A DNA stretch of 32,000 nt, from positions 1,860,001 through 1,892,000 of the forward strand of contig FP565575.1 of assembly GCA_000091165.1 (NCBI GenBank). The letters are read 5' to 3'. The stretch is from Candidatus Methylomirabilis oxygeniifera. GTDB lineage: Bacteria; Methylomirabilota; Methylomirabilia; Methylomirabilales; Methylomirabilaceae. Each line of letters starts with the position of its first letter. Positions within the stretch are counted from its first letter, which is position 1. Positions 2,539-20,254 of the stretch are shown one piece after another. The notes under the pieces are model-generated. The model worked only from the letters and a program-made list of their open reading frames with translations, was not told the origin of the DNA and did not search any database. The position numbers and the translations under genes were made by a program.

Positions 2539-3169
2539 CAGTCCGTTGTCTCGCCGCGAGAATTCCTCGATCTGCTCCGCTGAGACTGCCTTGTAGAATT
2601 CAGCATCCGGCGCGACGGTAATAGGAGTGTTCCGGCTGGCCGCCCCCTCCACCAGTGACGATCGCACCCAGCCTTGTAAGCTCGTCATCATTTGCAGCCC
2701 GTGAAGCGTGGGTACATTGTGACCGTGTCGCTACTGGCGACCAAAGGATGCGCGGCAATCAGATACGCAGTGTCGTTGCAAACCGCAGGCGACACAATCC
2801 CTTCTGAAATTCTTCCCCTTCGCTTTATTCCGCGTCGTCATGACTATTCGAGTCTGATTATTTTATTTCATTCACTACAATAAGTTTCTATCTCTTATCC
2901 TATGTTTTGCTTTCTTCTTGACATCTTTTGTGTGAGGAGGATAGTAACAGTATAGTGTGTTCGTGGTATCTTTCTCTAGTAAGAGGATGGTCATGTCGAC
3001 CGATGGATATTCGCCATTGAAGTCGACTACTGTTGGGCAAAAGGAATGTGTGCGGCCCTTCATGGCAGCCTGCGACGAGTGTAGTCGAGGTAGGTGAGCC
3101 CTGAAGGGTCGTGGTGTTTCCAGGGGCGGGTGGGCAAACGTCTATCGGGGAGTCCATCAGGAGGAAGTC

Positions 3170-4207
3170 ATGGGAACGACAAAGCAGCCCGCGAGGTCGG
3201 CGGCGATCTTTATTCTTCTGATAACGTTGGCGGGGTGCGCCGGCACCGATGGCGCCTCTTCTCGGTCAGCCACACCGATAATCACGCCAGGTCCCGCTCT
3301 CGGCACACCAGGCGCAGGACTCGAGCATGGACTCCCCGGTCCTACGGGTCCCAAGAAGCGGATCACGGTCGCCAAATTCGATGCAGCCGGTGCCTTCATG
3401 GCCCACTATGGCGGCTGGGATATTGGTGGCGGCCTCGCGGCTCAACTGACCACCGCTCTGGTGAATTCTGGTCACTTCATCGTCGTCGAGCGGGCCGAAC
3501 TGACCCCCGTACTGCGTGAGCAGGATATGGCCATGCAGAAGATCGTCTCCCAAGAGACCGCCGCCCAGGTGGGCCGGGTGCTTGGCGCCCAGCTTCTCGT
3601 TGCAGGATCGGTGACCGAGTTCGATCAGGGGGCCGGCGGCGGGAGCTTGCATCTGGGGGTTGGGGCGGCTTCAGGGCTGCTGGGCGGTCTCATTGGAGCC
3701 CAAACTACCAGGGGTGTGGTCGGGATGGATGTGCGTGTCATCGATACTACCACGGGCCAAGTGGTGCAGTCGCACCGGGTCGAGGCGAACACATCGCAAA
3801 GCGGGATCTCGGCGGACATCAACGTGCAGCAGGTAACCTTCGGCGGCGATGCGTTCAACAAGACCGTGCTCGGACAGGCGACGCGGCGGGCCATCGAGCA
3901 GGCCGTGATGTTCGTCATCCAATCGACGGAACAGACGCCGTGGACCGGTCGTATTGTTGACGTGGCAGGCGACCAGGTGTACATCAACGCGGGTGCCGGT
4001 GCGGGCGTGAAGCCGGGCGACCGCTTCACCGTTGCGGCAGTCGTGCGGGAGCTCAGAGATCCCGAGTCAGGCGCTCTCTTGGGAATCGTGGAAAACAGGC
4101 GAGGCGAGATCGAAGTGGTCAGCGTCCAGGAAAAGTTCAGCGTGGCCAAGAGGCGTACGCCCTTTCAGGCTGCCCGGGGGGACCTTGTGAAGCTCCCTGG
4201 GCGCTGA
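3170..4207 (+). CDS. CsgG/HfaB-family outer-membrane lipoprotein with a C-terminal beta-rich extension
   Basis: AGGAGG SD; lipobox LAG|C with Cys at residue 23. Block-by-block resemblance to E. coli CsgG: KRITVAKFD, LTTALVNSGHFIVVERAELTPVLREQ, AQLLVAGSVTEFD, and VGMDVRVIDTTTGQVV. An extra ~90 aa C-terminal domain (GRIVDVAGDQVYINAGAGAGVKPGDRF) follows. Confidence 0.85.
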   Translation: MGTTKQPARSAAIFILLITLAGCAGTDGASSRSATPIITPGPALGTPGAGLEHGLPGPTGPKKRITVAKFDAAGAFMAHYGGWDIGGGLAAQLTTALVNSGHFIVVERAELTPVLREQDMAMQKIVSQETAAQVGRVLGAQLLVAGSVTEFDQGAGGGSLHLGVGAASGLLGGLIGAQTTRGVVGMDVRVIDTTTGQVVQSHRVEANTSQSGISADINVQQVTFGGDAFNKTVLGQATRRAIEQAVMFVIQSTEQTPWTGRIVDVAGDQVYINAGAGAGVKPGDRFTVAAVVRELRDPESGALLGIVENRRGEIEVVSVQEKFSVAKRRTPFQAARGDLVKLPGR

Positions 4208-4248
4208 GTATTAAGAGTTTCGATGCTCCATAGAAAGGAGGTGATACC

Positions 4249-4596
4249 ATGAAGCGATGGCCGACTTTCACTCCGACGCTTACGATCCTGGTGGCCTTCA
4301 CGGAGTTGAGCGCTGCTCAGGAGAGGAAGGCCTGGGAGAAGCCAGTGGAGAAGCCGACACAAGGCAAGCTTCCTTTTGTCGGGAAGCAGCAGCTGATGAC
4401 CGGCAAGGTGACACAGGCAAATCCAACGACCAACACCTTTACCGTCATGGCTAAGGGCCAAATGGTCACCTTCAACGGTGCAAACCTGAACGCTCTCCCC
4501 AGGGTTGGGGAGATTATAGAGATCACCTACACCCAGACCTCCGGCGGGCCCATGCAAGCGACGACCATCAATAGCACGAAAAGCAACACTTTCTAA
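4249..4596 (+). CDS. small secreted T/N/Q/G-rich beta protein (unknown function)
   Basis: The 11-nt SD AAGGAGGTGAT (4235-4245) is fully complementary to the canonical 16S 3' tail. Sec signal with predicted cleavage SAA|QE after residue 23. Lies 41 nt downstream of the csgG-like gene. Confidence 0.75.
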   Translation: MKRWPTFTPTLTILVAFTELSAAQERKAWEKPVEKPTQGKLPFVGKQQLMTGKVTQANPTTNTFTVMAKGQMVTFNGANLNALPRVGEIIEITYTQTSGGPMQATTINSTKSNTF

Positions 4597-4623
4597 CCCC
4601 TCAACAAACAAGGAGGTGTCACC

Positions 4624-5553
4624 ATGAAGAAATTGCTCACGCTGGCTTTGGCTCTTGTAACCCTGGCGGTTTTCCCCAGTCTCGGCGTAGCGCAGGAGGA
4701 GAGGAGGATAGGTATGCCGCCGGTAGACGCCAAAAAGGATATCGCCGAAGTAAGTGCGGCTTCTCCAACATTCAAGGCTATACATGACCCTCTCGAGGGG
4801 AAACTTAAAGCCATAGAAGGCGTTCTCAGCGGTGTAGAACGCAGGAAAATAGTTGTAGAAGCGGATGTAGAACTGGGTAAACAGATGTACGAGTATGCGG
4901 AAGCTATGAAGGCTGCCTTTGATCAGGCAATGAAGGACGCAGAAGAGGCAGCAAAATCTCAGGGGAAGAAGGGAAGTGTAGGGTCGTTAAGGGTTTTCGA
5001 AGACACAGCGAAGGCTCACGAGAAGAGAGTGAAGGGCATAGAGACACAGACAAAGAGCATCGAAAGCGCGCTTAAGAAGGGGACTATCAAGTTAGATAAA
5101 CCAGTACTACTGAAGATGGAACCGGCAGAAAGGGAAGAGTTTAGGAAGTTTTTGGAACCTCCGGTAAGCAAAGAGTTGGAAAAAACGCATCCTGATATAT
5201 TCCACCATCCGAGAAGAGGAACTTCTCTTGATCTTAGCGGAGTGACTCAGGTGGCCGAGAACATTCAGGGATTTTGCAGCTCTCTGCCTGAGGAGGTGAG
5301 CAACTTCTTGGTGACCCCTGCTGAGGCATCGATTGCGATTCCCTGTATTGCTCCGTGTGCTAACGCTTTCTCGAACAAGAAGAACCCGAATTGGGCAGCA
5401 TGTTGGAGCTGCATAGCTTCTCAAGGACAGCAGGCAATAGTAGCATGGAATTCCTTTGTATCCGGTTGGAATGCATGCGGACAGTGTAAGAAAGTAGTGA
5501 CCTGGCCGTGTAAGGCTTTGCGCTTAGCAATATTCATTGCAAAACTTGCATAG
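4624..5553 (+). CDS. secreted bipartite protein: K/E-rich helical region plus C-terminal 8-Cys/5-Trp domain (unknown function)
   Basis: SD AAGGAGGTG (4609-4617). Signal peptide MKKLLTLALALVTLAVFPSLGVA|QE. Residues 24-217 contain no Cys and are charged and heptad-like. Residues 218-296 hold all 8 Cys, including CIAPC, CWSC and CGQC. GC in sampled lines is about 43-48%. Confidence 0.75.
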   Translation: MKKLLTLALALVTLAVFPSLGVAQEERRIGMPPVDAKKDIAEVSAASPTFKAIHDPLEGKLKAIEGVLSGVERRKIVVEADVELGKQMYEYAEAMKAAFDQAMKDAEEAAKSQGKKGSVGSLRVFEDTAKAHEKRVKGIETQTKSIESALKKGTIKLDKPVLLKMEPAEREEFRKFLEPPVSKELEKTHPDIFHHPRRGTSLDLSGVTQVAENIQGFCSSLPEEVSNFLVTPAEASIAIPCIAPCANAFSNKKNPNWAACWSCIASQGQQAIVAWNSFVSGWNACGQCKKVVTWPCKALRLAIFIAKLA

Positions 5554-5764
5554 CGGGTTGATCTTAATTTAACCTGAATCCGGCGTAATCCGGAATCTAT
5601 TATGTTGAATCATGAGTGTCCAATAAAATTTTTGGTGGTATAGAGGAAGTCGTTGAAACAACGTCATTATCTGAACGAATCGCTTCGGAACAATTTGAGT
5701 TTTGGAATGGGTCATAATCCCGGAATTAACCGGGAGGAGGCCCATAAGCTGCGCGTTTCGGTCC

Positions 5765-5821
5765 ATCGTGAACGCTCGGATCGCTGGATCGTGAACACCG
5801 GGATCGGTGATCATGAACACC
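5765..5821 (+). repeat. three degenerate direct repeats (core ATC[G/A]TGAAC) at ~22-23 bp spacing upstream of the istA remnant
   Basis: ATCGTGAAC at 5765-5773 and 5788-5796, and ATCATGAAC at 5810-5818. Units 1 and 2 align over ~22 nt (ATCGTGAACgCtcGGATCGcT versus ATCGTGAACaCcgGGATCGgT). Confidence 0.55.
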
Positions 5822-5927
5822 TAGACAATCCCCCGGAATTCGACGACCCTCGTCCCCACGAGTAGGCGCCGAACCGCGAGGCGACGCTGGATGGTCCAGC
5901 GCGCCACCCGCTTCAGGAAGGAGTGGG

Positions 5928-6450
5928 ATGGCGACCGAACGACTATCCATGTAACAAATCCGTGAGATTCTTCGCCAGAAGTGGACCCTGGGCTGGAGCC
6001 ACCGGCAGGTCACGACCAGTCTCGCCGTCAGTCTTGGGACGGTGACCGCTGTCCTCCGCCGGGCCACCCTTGCCGGGCTGAACTGGGCGCAGGTCCAGAC
6101 CCTGACCGATGACACCGTGGAGGCGCGGCTCTACGGCGCGCCGACCACCCCCGGAGCGACCCGCCCGCTCCCCGATTACGCCTACACCCATACCGAACGG
6201 CGCAAGCCCGGGGTCACGTTGGAGCTGCTCCACCTCGAATACCTCGAGCAGCATCCCACCGGCTACCGCTACACGCAGTTTTGCGAGCTGTACCGCCGGT
6301 GGCTGGCCGCCATCGCCTGACCATGCGCCAGAACCATCGCGCCGGGGAGAAGGTGTTCGTTGATTACGCCGGGCAGCACCCCACCCTCGTCGATCCCACC
6401 ACCGGGGCGGTGACCGAGGTCGAGCTCTTCGTCTGGGCTCTCGGGGCCAG
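5928..6450 (+). mobile_element. istA: IS21-family transposase (istA) remnant, pseudogene
   Basis: The reading MATERLSM*QIREILRQKWTLGWSHRQV...GTVTAVLRRATLAGLNW...YRYTQFCELYRRW resembles the IstA N-terminal HTH region. It has an in-frame TAA at 5952-5954, a stop at 6318-6320, and a frame change into RAGEKVFVDYAGQHPTLVDPTTGAVTEVELFVWALGA. The match is lost after about 6445 and no istB follows. Confidence 0.75.
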
Positions 6451-6830
6451 ATCCGCGACGTCCTCCGTCAGTACCTTGCATCCCACCGCTGGCAGCGACT
6501 GCGCCAATGGGGCGCCGAGACGGCGGAGCGCCTCTGGCTCAAGACCGAGGCGGATCTCCAGCGCCTGCTCGACGAGGTGCGGGCTGGTATGACATCGGAC
6601 TATATACTAAGGAAATGGCTGCTAACCTGGAACGGGCCGAACAATCCCTTGGCGCCGCTCAATTTCTCCCATCTCGATAGCCTTGCTGTTGTCTCTTCCG
6701 GTCATGATCATCCAGCGTCCGCTTTCCCGCTGAGGAAACACGCGGCTTTCATTCCATAAATAGGCTTGTATTTCTATCAATAAGCATCATAATGTCACTG
6801 TAATATAATATCAGTAACAATGGAGAGTGA

Positions 6831-18842: not shown

Positions 18843-18929
18843 GCGAGAGTGGCGGAATGGCAGACGCGCTGGACTTAGGATCCAGTCCGCCTTTGGCGGA
18901 TGGGGGTTCAAGTCCCCCCTCTCGCACCA
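18843..18929 (+). tRNA. tRNA-Leu (anticodon UAG), CCA encoded
   Basis: Hand-folded cloverleaf. Acceptor GCGAGAG pairs with CTCTCGC. Anticodon stem CTGGA/TCCAG carries loop CTTAGGA. The long variable arm is CCGCC-TTT-GGCGG. The T arm is GGGGG-TTCAAGT-CCCCC, followed by discriminator A and CCA. Confidence 0.9.
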
Positions 18930-18958
18930 CAAATCCGACATCTAATTCCGAGATACGT

Positions 18959-20254
18959 ATGAAAGTAGATATCGAAGAGATCAGCAGCACCAAACGCGCA
19001 CTCCGAGTCGAATTACCCCCTGAAAGTCTCTCAGAGAAGTTGGAGACGGCATATCTGCGCCTTGCGAAGAAGGCTCGCCTCCCAGGCTTCCGTCCAGGTA
19101 AGATCCCGCGGGATCTCCTGCGTTCGCGTTTCAGGGATGAAGCCAAACAGGAGGCCCTCAGAGAACTCATCCCGGAAAGCTATGGTCAAGCGCTGAAGGA
19201 GTCCAATCTGGATCCGATAAGCGAACCGACGTTGGAAGAGATGGTCTGCGAGGAGGGTAAGCCTCTAAGCTACCGGGCTTGCTTTGACGTGAGGCCCGCG
19301 CTACAGCTTTCGGGCTACACGGGAGTTGAGGTCTACAAGGAAAAGCTTGAAGTAGCGGACACTGAGGTCGATCAAGCCGTGGAGTATCTCCGGGAGCGGA
19401 CGGCAGAGTTCGTACCGATGGATGGCTGGCCCGCTCTACAGGAAGACCTCCTGGTGGTAGACTACGAAGGCTTTACCGGCGGTAAACCGCTCAAGGGCGT
19501 AAGCGGTCAAAACACCTCGATCCTTCTCGGCGCCCACCGGTTCATCCCAGAATTTGAGACCCAACTCCATGGCCTCAAGAAGGGCGATCTTAAAGAGTTC
19601 TCTATGGAGTTCCCGAACGATTACGGACGACGGGAGTTGGCGGGAAAGCGGGTACTGTTCAAGGTCACGGTCAAAGAGGTGAAGAAAAAGCAGGTACCGT
19701 CGCCGGATGATAATTTCGCGAAATCGGTGGCCGGCTGCGAAGATATCCAGGCTCTCAGAGAGAAGATCAAGCAGGATCTACTCGCGCATAAGGAGCGGGA
19801 GCAGGTGGTCCGTCTCAAGGACCAGATCCTGGACAAACTGCGCACTGCCCATCCGTTCGATCCTCCGGAATCGTTGGTGGATGCAGAGGTCGAGGCTATC
19901 CTCGCTGATCTGAGGCGGAGCGCCGGCAGCCGTAAGCCCACCGCTGCTCCGAGCGAAGACGAGGCGACGCTGGCCAAGGCGAGAGAACTCGCCTCAAAAC
20001 GGGTTCAGGACTCTCTCTTGCTGGAAACGGTGGCGAAGCAGGAAGGACTTGAGGTGTCGGAGGACGAATTGAATAAAGAGGTCGAGTCGGCCGCTGCCAC
20101 CCTGAATCGTAAACCGGAGGCCCTCCGCGACATGTTGGAGCGAGAAGGACGGATTGAGGCCTTCCGAACACGCTTACTGGAGGGAAAGGCGCTCGATCTT
20201 CTGTATAAGCAGGCCAACATTGTGGAAGGGAAAAATCTCGTAACCCTCGCCTGA
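18959..20254 (+). CDS. tig: trigger factor
   Basis: MKVDIEEISSTKRALRVELP start; ribosome-binding motif GFRPGKIPR; FKBP-like middle domain. The longer ORF-track start at 18857 would read through the tRNA and is rejected. Confidence 0.93.
   Translation: MKVDIEEISSTKRALRVELPPESLSEKLETAYLRLAKKARLPGFRPGKIPRDLLRSRFRDEAKQEALRELIPESYGQALKESNLDPISEPTLEEMVCEEGKPLSYRACFDVRPALQLSGYTGVEVYKEKLEVADTEVDQAVEYLRERTAEFVPMDGWPALQEDLLVVDYEGFTGGKPLKGVSGQNTSILLGAHRFIPEFETQLHGLKKGDLKEFSMEFPNDYGRRELAGKRVLFKVTVKEVKKKQVPSPDDNFAKSVAGCEDIQALREKIKQDLLAHKEREQVVRLKDQILDKLRTAHPFDPPESLVDAEVEAILADLRRSAGSRKPTAAPSEDEATLAKARELASKRVQDSLLLETVAKQEGLEVSEDELNKEVESAAATLNRKPEALRDMLEREGRIEAFRTRLLEGKALDLLYKQANIVEGKNLVTLA

Follow-up and report, generated by a model that had tools for sequence, protein, structure and literature searches.

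To our knowledge, characterised members of the very large lipoprotein family PF03783 are limited to CsgG and HfaB. In Escherichia coli CsgG, two hairpin segments per chain build a 36-stranded, nonameric barrel, and in Caulobacter the family member HfaB, a secretin-like lipoprotein of the holdfast anchor, has small exported partner proteins encoded alongside it. In the survey by Dueholm et al., curli loci hold only 26% of PF03783 hits (PMC3521004); a CsgG-family gene usually stands apart from curli genes. One such gene lies in a 32,000-nucleotide stretch of the genome of Candidatus Methylomirabilis oxygeniifera (NC10 phylum), hereafter the window (contig FP565575.1, positions 1,860,001 to 1,892,000), where it stands at the head of a group of three, here called g1, g2 and g3. 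A preliminary description of this locus had proposed a secretion module in which g1 encodes the channel and g2 and g3 its cargo. Comparison with related loci suggests instead, with a probability that we put at about 0.55, an operon in which a CsgG/HfaB-family outer-membrane lipoprotein is followed by lineage-variable cassettes for Sec-exported proteins. The g1-g2-g3 trio itself is not a conserved module.

The three open reading frames (ORFs) lie on the + strand of the window, as do the promoter-like site, leader, spacer and terminator-like hairpins described below: g1 at 3170-4207 (345 amino acids), g2 at 4249-4596 (115 amino acids) and g3 at 4624-5553 (309 amino acids). The co-directional arrangement with gaps of 41 nt between g1 and g2 and 27 nt between g2 and g3 is confirmed, and all three encode predicted exported proteins. 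Each ORF has a strong Shine-Dalgarno (SD) sequence, GGAGGA upstream of g1 and AAGGAGGTG upstream of both g2 and g3. A consensus scan found no terminator-like site in the g1-g2 and g2-g3 gaps, and two terminator-like hairpins just 3' of the g3 stop (5543-5559 and 5579-5594, together spanning 5543..5594). The three genes look like a single transcription unit. Identical protein records from the same organism exist for all three (CBE69202, CBE69204 and CBE69205). In UniProt, g1 appears as 'putative curli production component CsgG', g2 as 'DUF5666 domain-containing' and g3 as 'DUF5667 domain-containing'; the label of g1 as a putative CsgG is therefore not new.

The g1 product is a predicted outer-membrane lipoprotein. 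Its N-terminus, ...LLITLAGC, carries an L-A-G-C lipobox at residues 20-23, with Cys23 encoded at 3236-3238, and a Cys at this position is kept by most members of a 23-sequence alignment, six being without it. The Pfam CsgG profile (PF03783) matches residues 62-259 (3353-3946) with E 7e-34 and 117.4 bits against a cut-off of 20.8, in an alignment that takes in profile positions 9-207 of 210 and lacks any large deletion. Downstream of it, Pfam FlgT_C matches residues 267-328 (3968-4153; E 4e-8, 34 bits, cut-off 27), so the preliminary assignment of g1 as a CsgG/HfaB-like lipoprotein with an added beta-rich domain holds. The equivalog models of NCBIfam are another matter: g1 scores 23.9 against a cut-off of 505 for CsgG (PRK15184), 18 against 300 for HfaB (NF037935) and 26.2 against 110.55 for LpoB (TIGR02722). 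Because the Pfam matches are strong and the equivalogs far under threshold, g1 is classed on its sequence as a member of the CsgG superfamily and an orthologue of no characterised protein.

Sequence searches of the PDB point the same way. For the first domain of g1 they return only E. coli CsgG, with E 4e-5 from the single sequence and 3.6e-9 from a profile of the subfamily, and for the C-terminal domain TsaP, a secretin-associated ring protein (E 3.7e-5). At about 20% identity, the alignment of g1 with E. coli CsgG, itself a lipoprotein, runs through the periplasmic alpha/beta domain and traverses both hairpin regions, which are of similar length. The corresponding g1 segments, placed by alignment to the PDB chains of CsgG, are residues 154-182 and 207-231, and the highest beta-amphipathic moments of the protein (residues 158, 181 and 210-213) fall within these segments aligned to the transmembrane hairpins TM1 and TM2. 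Structure prediction for g1 covered the single chain. Unlike CsgG and HfaB, g1 has the extra C-terminal FlgT_C/TsaP-like domain. Overall, the sequence evidence speaks for a protein of the CsgG type to which a ring-building domain has been added.

This combination defines a subfamily of more than 275 homologues (E<1e-10), nearly all with CsgG followed by FlgT_C, found in NC10, Rokubacteria, Acidobacteria, Verrucomicrobia and some Proteobacteria. The architecture is recorded in domain databases and, as far as the literature shows, apparently unstudied: literature searches turned up no paper naming CsgG together with FlgT, nor CsgG together with Methylomirabilis. A g1 orthologue from one metagenome assembly (L007, 1467-2497; L numbers denote the comparison loci) is broken into ORFs of 147 and 196 amino acids, by a frameshift that makes it a pseudogene or by an error of assembly.

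The second gene agrees with its earlier portrayal as a small secreted protein rich in T, N, Q and G, residues that make up 41% of mature g2. g2 looks like a Sec-exported small beta-barrel protein. In an alignment of its 22 homologues the signal peptide is followed by a linker and a beta domain some 60 residues long, and the C-terminus is a conserved tail, ATTINxTKSNT[FY] (ATTINSTKSNTF in g2). Despite the UniProt label, DUF5666 scores only 15.6 bits against g2, under the Pfam cut-off of 27; weak similarity to DUF5666 or KfrB, likewise under the cut-off, appears in 8-9 of the 22 members (for DUF5666 in 8, best E 6e-4). A PDB sequence search gave noise-level matches only. Like CsgE and CsgF, g2 is small, Sec-exported and encoded in the operon of a putative channel gene, and by functional analogy it could play a comparable part. 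No sequence or fold relationship between them was found; g2 resembles a DUF5666/SH3-like beta-barrel.

The third gene likewise bears out what had been read from its sequence, a secreted protein with a helical region and a Cys-rich domain. The AlphaFold2 (AF2) model of g3 has a helical N-domain at residues ~45-195, with a predicted local distance difference test score (pLDDT) of ~90, and a less confident, helical, Cys-rich C-domain that ends in KLA; eight Cys lie within the last 92 residues. Beyond 11 close homologues, an exhaustive profile search collected 228 representative clusters at E<=1e-3, 197 of them at E<=1e-10, and a metagenome scan with the g3 profile returned only two loci. Among 150 representatives the protein is typically ~284 amino acids long, the N-terminus is signal-peptide-like in 127, the last 100 residues contain on average ~7 Cys, and the C-terminus is usually xLA. 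g3 has no Pfam family; a PDB search by fold gave no match, and one by sequence gave noise-level matches only. The DUF5667 label of UniProt is not reproducible, with no DUF5667 match at E<=10 in any of 11 family members. Judged by its sequences, this is an unannotated family of secreted proteins. A few members are fused to dockerin or cohesin domains (P0168 and P0245 carry dockerin and/or cohesin N-terminally), a hint that the family may act outside the cell or in surface assembly.

The DUF5666 and DUF5667 labels had also raised the idea of a g2-g3 Rosetta-stone fusion. It is rejected: none of the 150 g3-family representatives has a g2-like domain, and in a comparison of g2 with all of them the signal peptides alone match. 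As a separate observation, the g3 motif KKGTIKLDKPVLLK (5077-5118, residues 152-165) is found again, nearly letter for letter, in several g2 homologues (P0020-P0022, P0025 and the protein at L038 1305-1682), within their N-terminal linker, which suggests past recombination between g2 and g3 or a common binding motif.

Are g2 and g3 then the dedicated, co-evolved cargo of a type-VIII-like channel, as CsgA and CsgB are for CsgG? Several features of the locus would fit: g1 belongs to the CsgG family and retains the hairpin segments, the spacing is operon-like with a shared leader, and g2 adjoins g1 in several NC10 lineages. The neighbourhoods of the homologues argue otherwise; g1 was sought in them by a six-frame scan, which also picks up the truncated g1 copies where the contigs of L042 and L044 end. 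g3 occurs in seven other contexts (L001, L002, L003, L004, L038, L039 and L040), and in the available flanks, which reach up to 7-8 kb in L001 and L004, a g1 homologue is found in none; a g2 homologue lies nearby in L038 only. At 27 loci from other genomes with a g1 homologue, neither g2 nor g3 occurs within 5 kb. The closest g1 orthologue examined (L047), with 84% identity and the same synteny with DHODH and endonuclease III, is also without g2 and g3 and has g1-110aa-136aa-DsbA instead. The trio is thus not conserved as a module: g1 accompanies g3 in 0 of 7 other contexts and g2 in 4 of 7 other lineages, and 27 g1 loci have neither.

The supposed tie of the downstream genes to a CsgG-like neighbour is borne out in part for g2 and falls for g3. 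A g2 or g2-like paralogue adjoins a g1 homologue in four of seven other lineages: L005 has g1-g2-137aa-DsbA; L041 has g1-g2-75aa; in L044 g1 is followed by a g2-like gene, a 433-aa gene and g2; and in L042 a divergently oriented g1 lies ~1.2 kb from a g2-like gene, g2, a 583-aa gene and DsbA. g2 is also found where g1 is not: in L038, where the order is g2-remnant-g3-DsbA with an anti-sigma-like gene upstream, in L045, where the leader runs straight into g2 and then a 136-aa gene, and in L008, with no g1 within reach. Behind the same g1-g2 block, unrelated proteins replace g3.

The properties of the proteins also speak against dedicated cargo. The neighbours of g1 are predicted to be folded and non-repetitive, unlike the products of a curli locus; neither g2 nor g3 has repeats, curli-like or amyloid-type sequence or a match to a curli family in Pfam or NCBIfam. 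No CsgA, CsgB, CsgC, CsgE or CsgF gene was seen in the window, nor were HfaA- or HfaD-like neighbours by g1, in line with the preliminary description; this holds for the larger ORFs scanned, small ORFs being covered incompletely. The eyelet of CsgG is ~12 Angstrom wide and passes unfolded chains (PMC7304575). A cargo role for g3 is biophysically awkward, since g3 is helical and Cys-rich and its relatives are paired with DsbA, features that fit a folded, disulfide-bonded periplasmic protein and suit such an eyelet poorly. The same 262-aa DsbA-family gene closes the array in four relatives (L005 8992-9780, L038 3312-4100, L042 4401-5189 and L047 8308-9096); no DsbA homologue was found in the window. 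Cargo status is unlikely for g3, and the full scheme, with g2 and g3 both as dedicated substrates, is very improbable. The preliminary description had itself said that its idea would fail if the downstream genes usually occurred without a CsgG-like neighbour, and g3 occurs in just that way; the fixed module is not supported. A new secretion system is not established for the cluster, because the genes behind g1 are interchangeable cassettes rather than a fixed cargo set.

In seven contexts the spacing from g2 to the next gene is always 27 nt, with four unrelated downstream families and one short 75-aa ORF. The first ~25 codons behind this spacer (CCCTTCAACAAnnAAGGAGGTnnnnCC) are conserved and encode the signal peptide MKKLLTLALALVxLAAF..., and the mature proteins that follow are g3, a 137-aa beta-rich protein, a 127/136-aa family with the mature N-terminus ATNLNSSRSNIY or ATASWNYSKSNIN, the 75-aa product and a 583-aa Cys-rich protein. 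By blastn, nucleotide homology between the window and L005 extends from 2882 to 4705 and ends just past the g3 signal peptide, and L038 keeps a frameshifted remnant of spacer and signal peptide (1702-1872) ahead of its g3 copy. The spacer together with the signal-peptide coding region of the next gene (4597..4705) thus looks like a recombination junction at which the mature parts of secreted-protein cassettes are exchanged.

Loci of polymorphic secreted proteins look similar, with mature parts that change behind a constant spacer and signal peptide. This raises the question of whether g1, perhaps assisted by g2 as an adaptor, exports varying small Sec-dependent proteins of the cassettes through a short terminal signal. 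A candidate signal exists. The motif T-x-N-S-[ST]-[KR]-S-N-x-[FY], here called KSN, stands at the C-terminus of g2 (4561-4593) and again at the mature N-terminus of a 127-147-aa family found near g1 or g2 in other lineages: directly after g1 in L020 (5863-6306), second after g1 in L047 (7713-8123), and after g2 in L008 (2708-3091) and L045 (646-1056). It occurs twice in the 75-aa cassette of L041 (1792-2019), and among ORFs of at least 40 amino acids in the window and L001-L037 the strict regular expression matched these proteins only. However, the motif is not in g3, in the 137-aa, 110-aa and 583-aa cassettes or in the g2-like paralogues, and several arrays have no g1 nearby (L008, L038 and L045). 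The Cys-rich cassettes with DsbA argue for folding in the periplasm, and a motif so short could owe its recurrence to chance or shared ancestry. Export of polymorphic cargo by g1 is improbable, if less so than dedicated cargo.

The reading of the locus as a CsgG-type lipoprotein with variable cassettes has observations to contend with as well. The comparison contigs are mostly short, and absence of g1 nearby is compatible with a copy elsewhere in the genome; the lineages in which g1 and g2 adjoin are mutually related and hence are non-independent observations. At the level of the protein, the constriction loop of CsgG is formed by stacked rings of Tyr66, Asn70 and Phe71 in precursor numbering (PMC7304575, the source of the constriction residues used here), and g1 matches them only in part: its loop, Y80-G-G-W83-D84, is 3-4 residues shorter, Y80 aligns with Y66, and W83 and D84 replace N70 and F71. 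These residues are partly conserved in the subfamily, among whose members Y80 and W83 vary. The AF2 monomer of g1 (pLDDT 72.9) is confident in both globular domains and of low confidence exactly at the putative hairpin loops (pLDDT below 50-67). Finally, a Foldseek search with this model ranks FlgT of the Vibrio flagellar H-ring (3w1e, E 5e-18) and the Vibrio LPHT ring (8z5n, template modelling score 0.63) above the CsgG chains, which follow at 1e-9 to 1e-7 and are themselves followed by PelC, LpoB, GNA1162 and CT253. All of these points weigh against a CsgG-like pore with cassettes, though FlgT and the LPHT ring rank first because two domains align.

Could g1 be no channel at all? As a periplasm-facing ring or scaffold of the FlgT/TsaP/PelC/LpoB type, anchored in the outer membrane, it would have neighbours that are unrelated to it or are its binding partners. 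The model-based comparison lends this some weight, given that the best overall structural match of g1 is to the arrangement of the M and C domains of FlgT, that PelC, LpoB and GNA1162 are among the matches, and that the hairpin loops are poorly modelled. The C-terminal domain of g1 is homologous to the ring-forming beta domains FlgT_C and TsaP, and Pfam LpoB gives a partial match above its cut-off, over 65 of 147 profile positions. Yet the first domain is matched much more strongly by the CsgG profile than by FlgT_M (117 bits against 27.3, the latter under the FlgT_M cut-off of 31.2) and is ~40 residues longer than the FlgT_M profile, the LpoB equivalog falls far short of its threshold, and the strongest amphipathic beta signal sits in the segments aligned to TM1 and TM2. 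Unlike FlgT and TsaP, g1 is a lipoprotein, has no FlgT_N (by Pfam) or LysM domain, and shows no flagellar or type IV pilus context, no such genes having been seen among the larger ORFs of the window. A ring or scaffold without a pore is the least improbable of the alternatives, and we still regard it as unlikely.

The CsgG-type lipoprotein with variable cassettes would work as follows. g1 would be lipidated, sorted to the outer membrane and assembled into a CsgG-like ring or pore, with its C-terminal domains forming a periplasmic collar or a built-in cap under the vestibule, in the position that CsgE takes in curli. On its sequence features, g1 is probably an oligomeric pore with such a built-in collar. 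g2 is the most frequent first cassette and adjoins g1 in NC10 relatives even after rearrangement; as a recurrent NC10 partner it may be an accessory protein, and it would be a periplasmic partner of g1 rather than a threaded substrate. g3 would be a disulfide-bonded periplasmic or envelope protein and not dedicated cargo, one of several exchangeable passengers from a family that resides mostly elsewhere, without CsgG or g2 neighbours.

A conserved promoter together with a structured leader probably controls expression of the whole. The consensus scan places a sigma-70-like site, TTGACA, 16 nt and GATAGT, at 2918..2945, and its -35 block CTTGACATC is invariant across five related loci. Alignments, folding and nhmmer delimit a conserved, structured non-coding leader of ~225 nt (2946..3169) between this promoter-like site and g1. 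L005, L041 and L047 share the 250 nt that lie upstream of g1, and in L045 the same sequence stands immediately before g2, which argues for a promoter shared by g1 and the cassettes. The single transcription unit assumed in the preliminary description thus gains support at the sequence level, the conserved promoter and leader apparently driving g2 directly in a lineage without g1. The leader folds with a minimum free energy of -86 kcal/mol, a stability that none of 200 shuffled sequences reached (z -3.4). Its invariant long hairpin at 3052-3112, followed by GGTGTTTCC, is terminator- or attenuator-like, with the U-rich tract GGUGUUUCC directly behind it, and UUCUCU (2972-2977) is predicted to pair with the g1 SD (3160-3165). 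In L041 the apical part of the hairpin is deleted and the stem kept; covariation is sparse, because the sequences are close.

nhmmer with the leader matches only syntenic NC10 loci, and Rfam has no match at gathering score or at E<=1, so that a known RNA family is rejected. Minus-strand ORFs that overlap the leader lack conservation, and a small minus-strand gene in the same region (2875-3157) is also rejected, since stops or frameshifts break its frame in three of four relatives. From its sequence the leader is a candidate new cis-regulatory RNA, whether attenuator, thermosensor or riboswitch. A bolder scheme would join all these elements: the CsgG+FlgT_C lipoprotein as a type-VIII-like channel, recombining KSN-tagged cassettes as its substrates, analogous to the N22 signal of curli, and the leader as an undescribed RNA switch. 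We think it improbable that the scheme holds as a whole.

In the wider g1 subfamily an exported-protein gene is frequently next downstream, at -25 to +42 nt, and its identity depends on the lineage. In L020 (Acidoferrum) it encodes the 147-aa KSN protein (+5 nt), in L011, L012 and L013 (Verrucomicrobiia and Ramlibacter) a large Pro-rich protein, and in L019 a vWA protein. Deltaproteobacterial g1 homologues (L023-L035, 31-34% identity) have as their next gene, at -10 to +13 nt, one for a PEGA-domain lipoprotein of ~110 amino acids at every locus with a readable downstream flank; the two form a conserved pair, distinct from the NC10 arrangement. Near a g3 homologue, a different neighbour was noticed in L040, where a 644-aa protein ending in ...GLRF (218-2152) precedes it. 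By eye this protein, with its aromatic C-terminus, resembles a beta-barrel of the outer membrane, and it is a possible outer-membrane partner other than CsgG.

The rest of the window holds mostly housekeeping genes with toxin-antitoxin and mobile-element debris. Immediately after g3 (5554-6830) lie fragments similar to toxin-antitoxin genes of relatives; 6450-6587, for example, matches L041 2901-3038 at 93%. The housekeeping ORFs include RuBisCO, a CbbX-like AAA protein, phosphoenolpyruvate carboxylase, carbonic anhydrase, alanine racemase, trigger factor, ClpP/ClpX, BamD, KsgA, enolase and GDH. The trigger-factor ORF as called mechanically (18857-20254) begins within a tRNA-Leu (18843-18929), and the true tig start is probably further downstream than 18857. 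A phage or defence origin of the cluster is rejected, with no PADLOC matches and PHROG matches to two families of unknown function, for g1 only.

The by-products of the comparison may be worth more than the original cargo hypothesis: a junction at which cassettes are swapped, the g3 family without annotation, the terminal motif common to g2 and other cassette proteins, and the structured leader. As to the roles of the other CsgG-family members, this locus narrows the question for one widespread subfamily, which combines CsgG with a FlgT_C/TsaP-like domain. Here the lineage-specific partners of g1, namely g2, the KSN protein, the Pro-rich protein and the PEGA lipoprotein, provide concrete pairs in which accessory or cargo roles can be sought.

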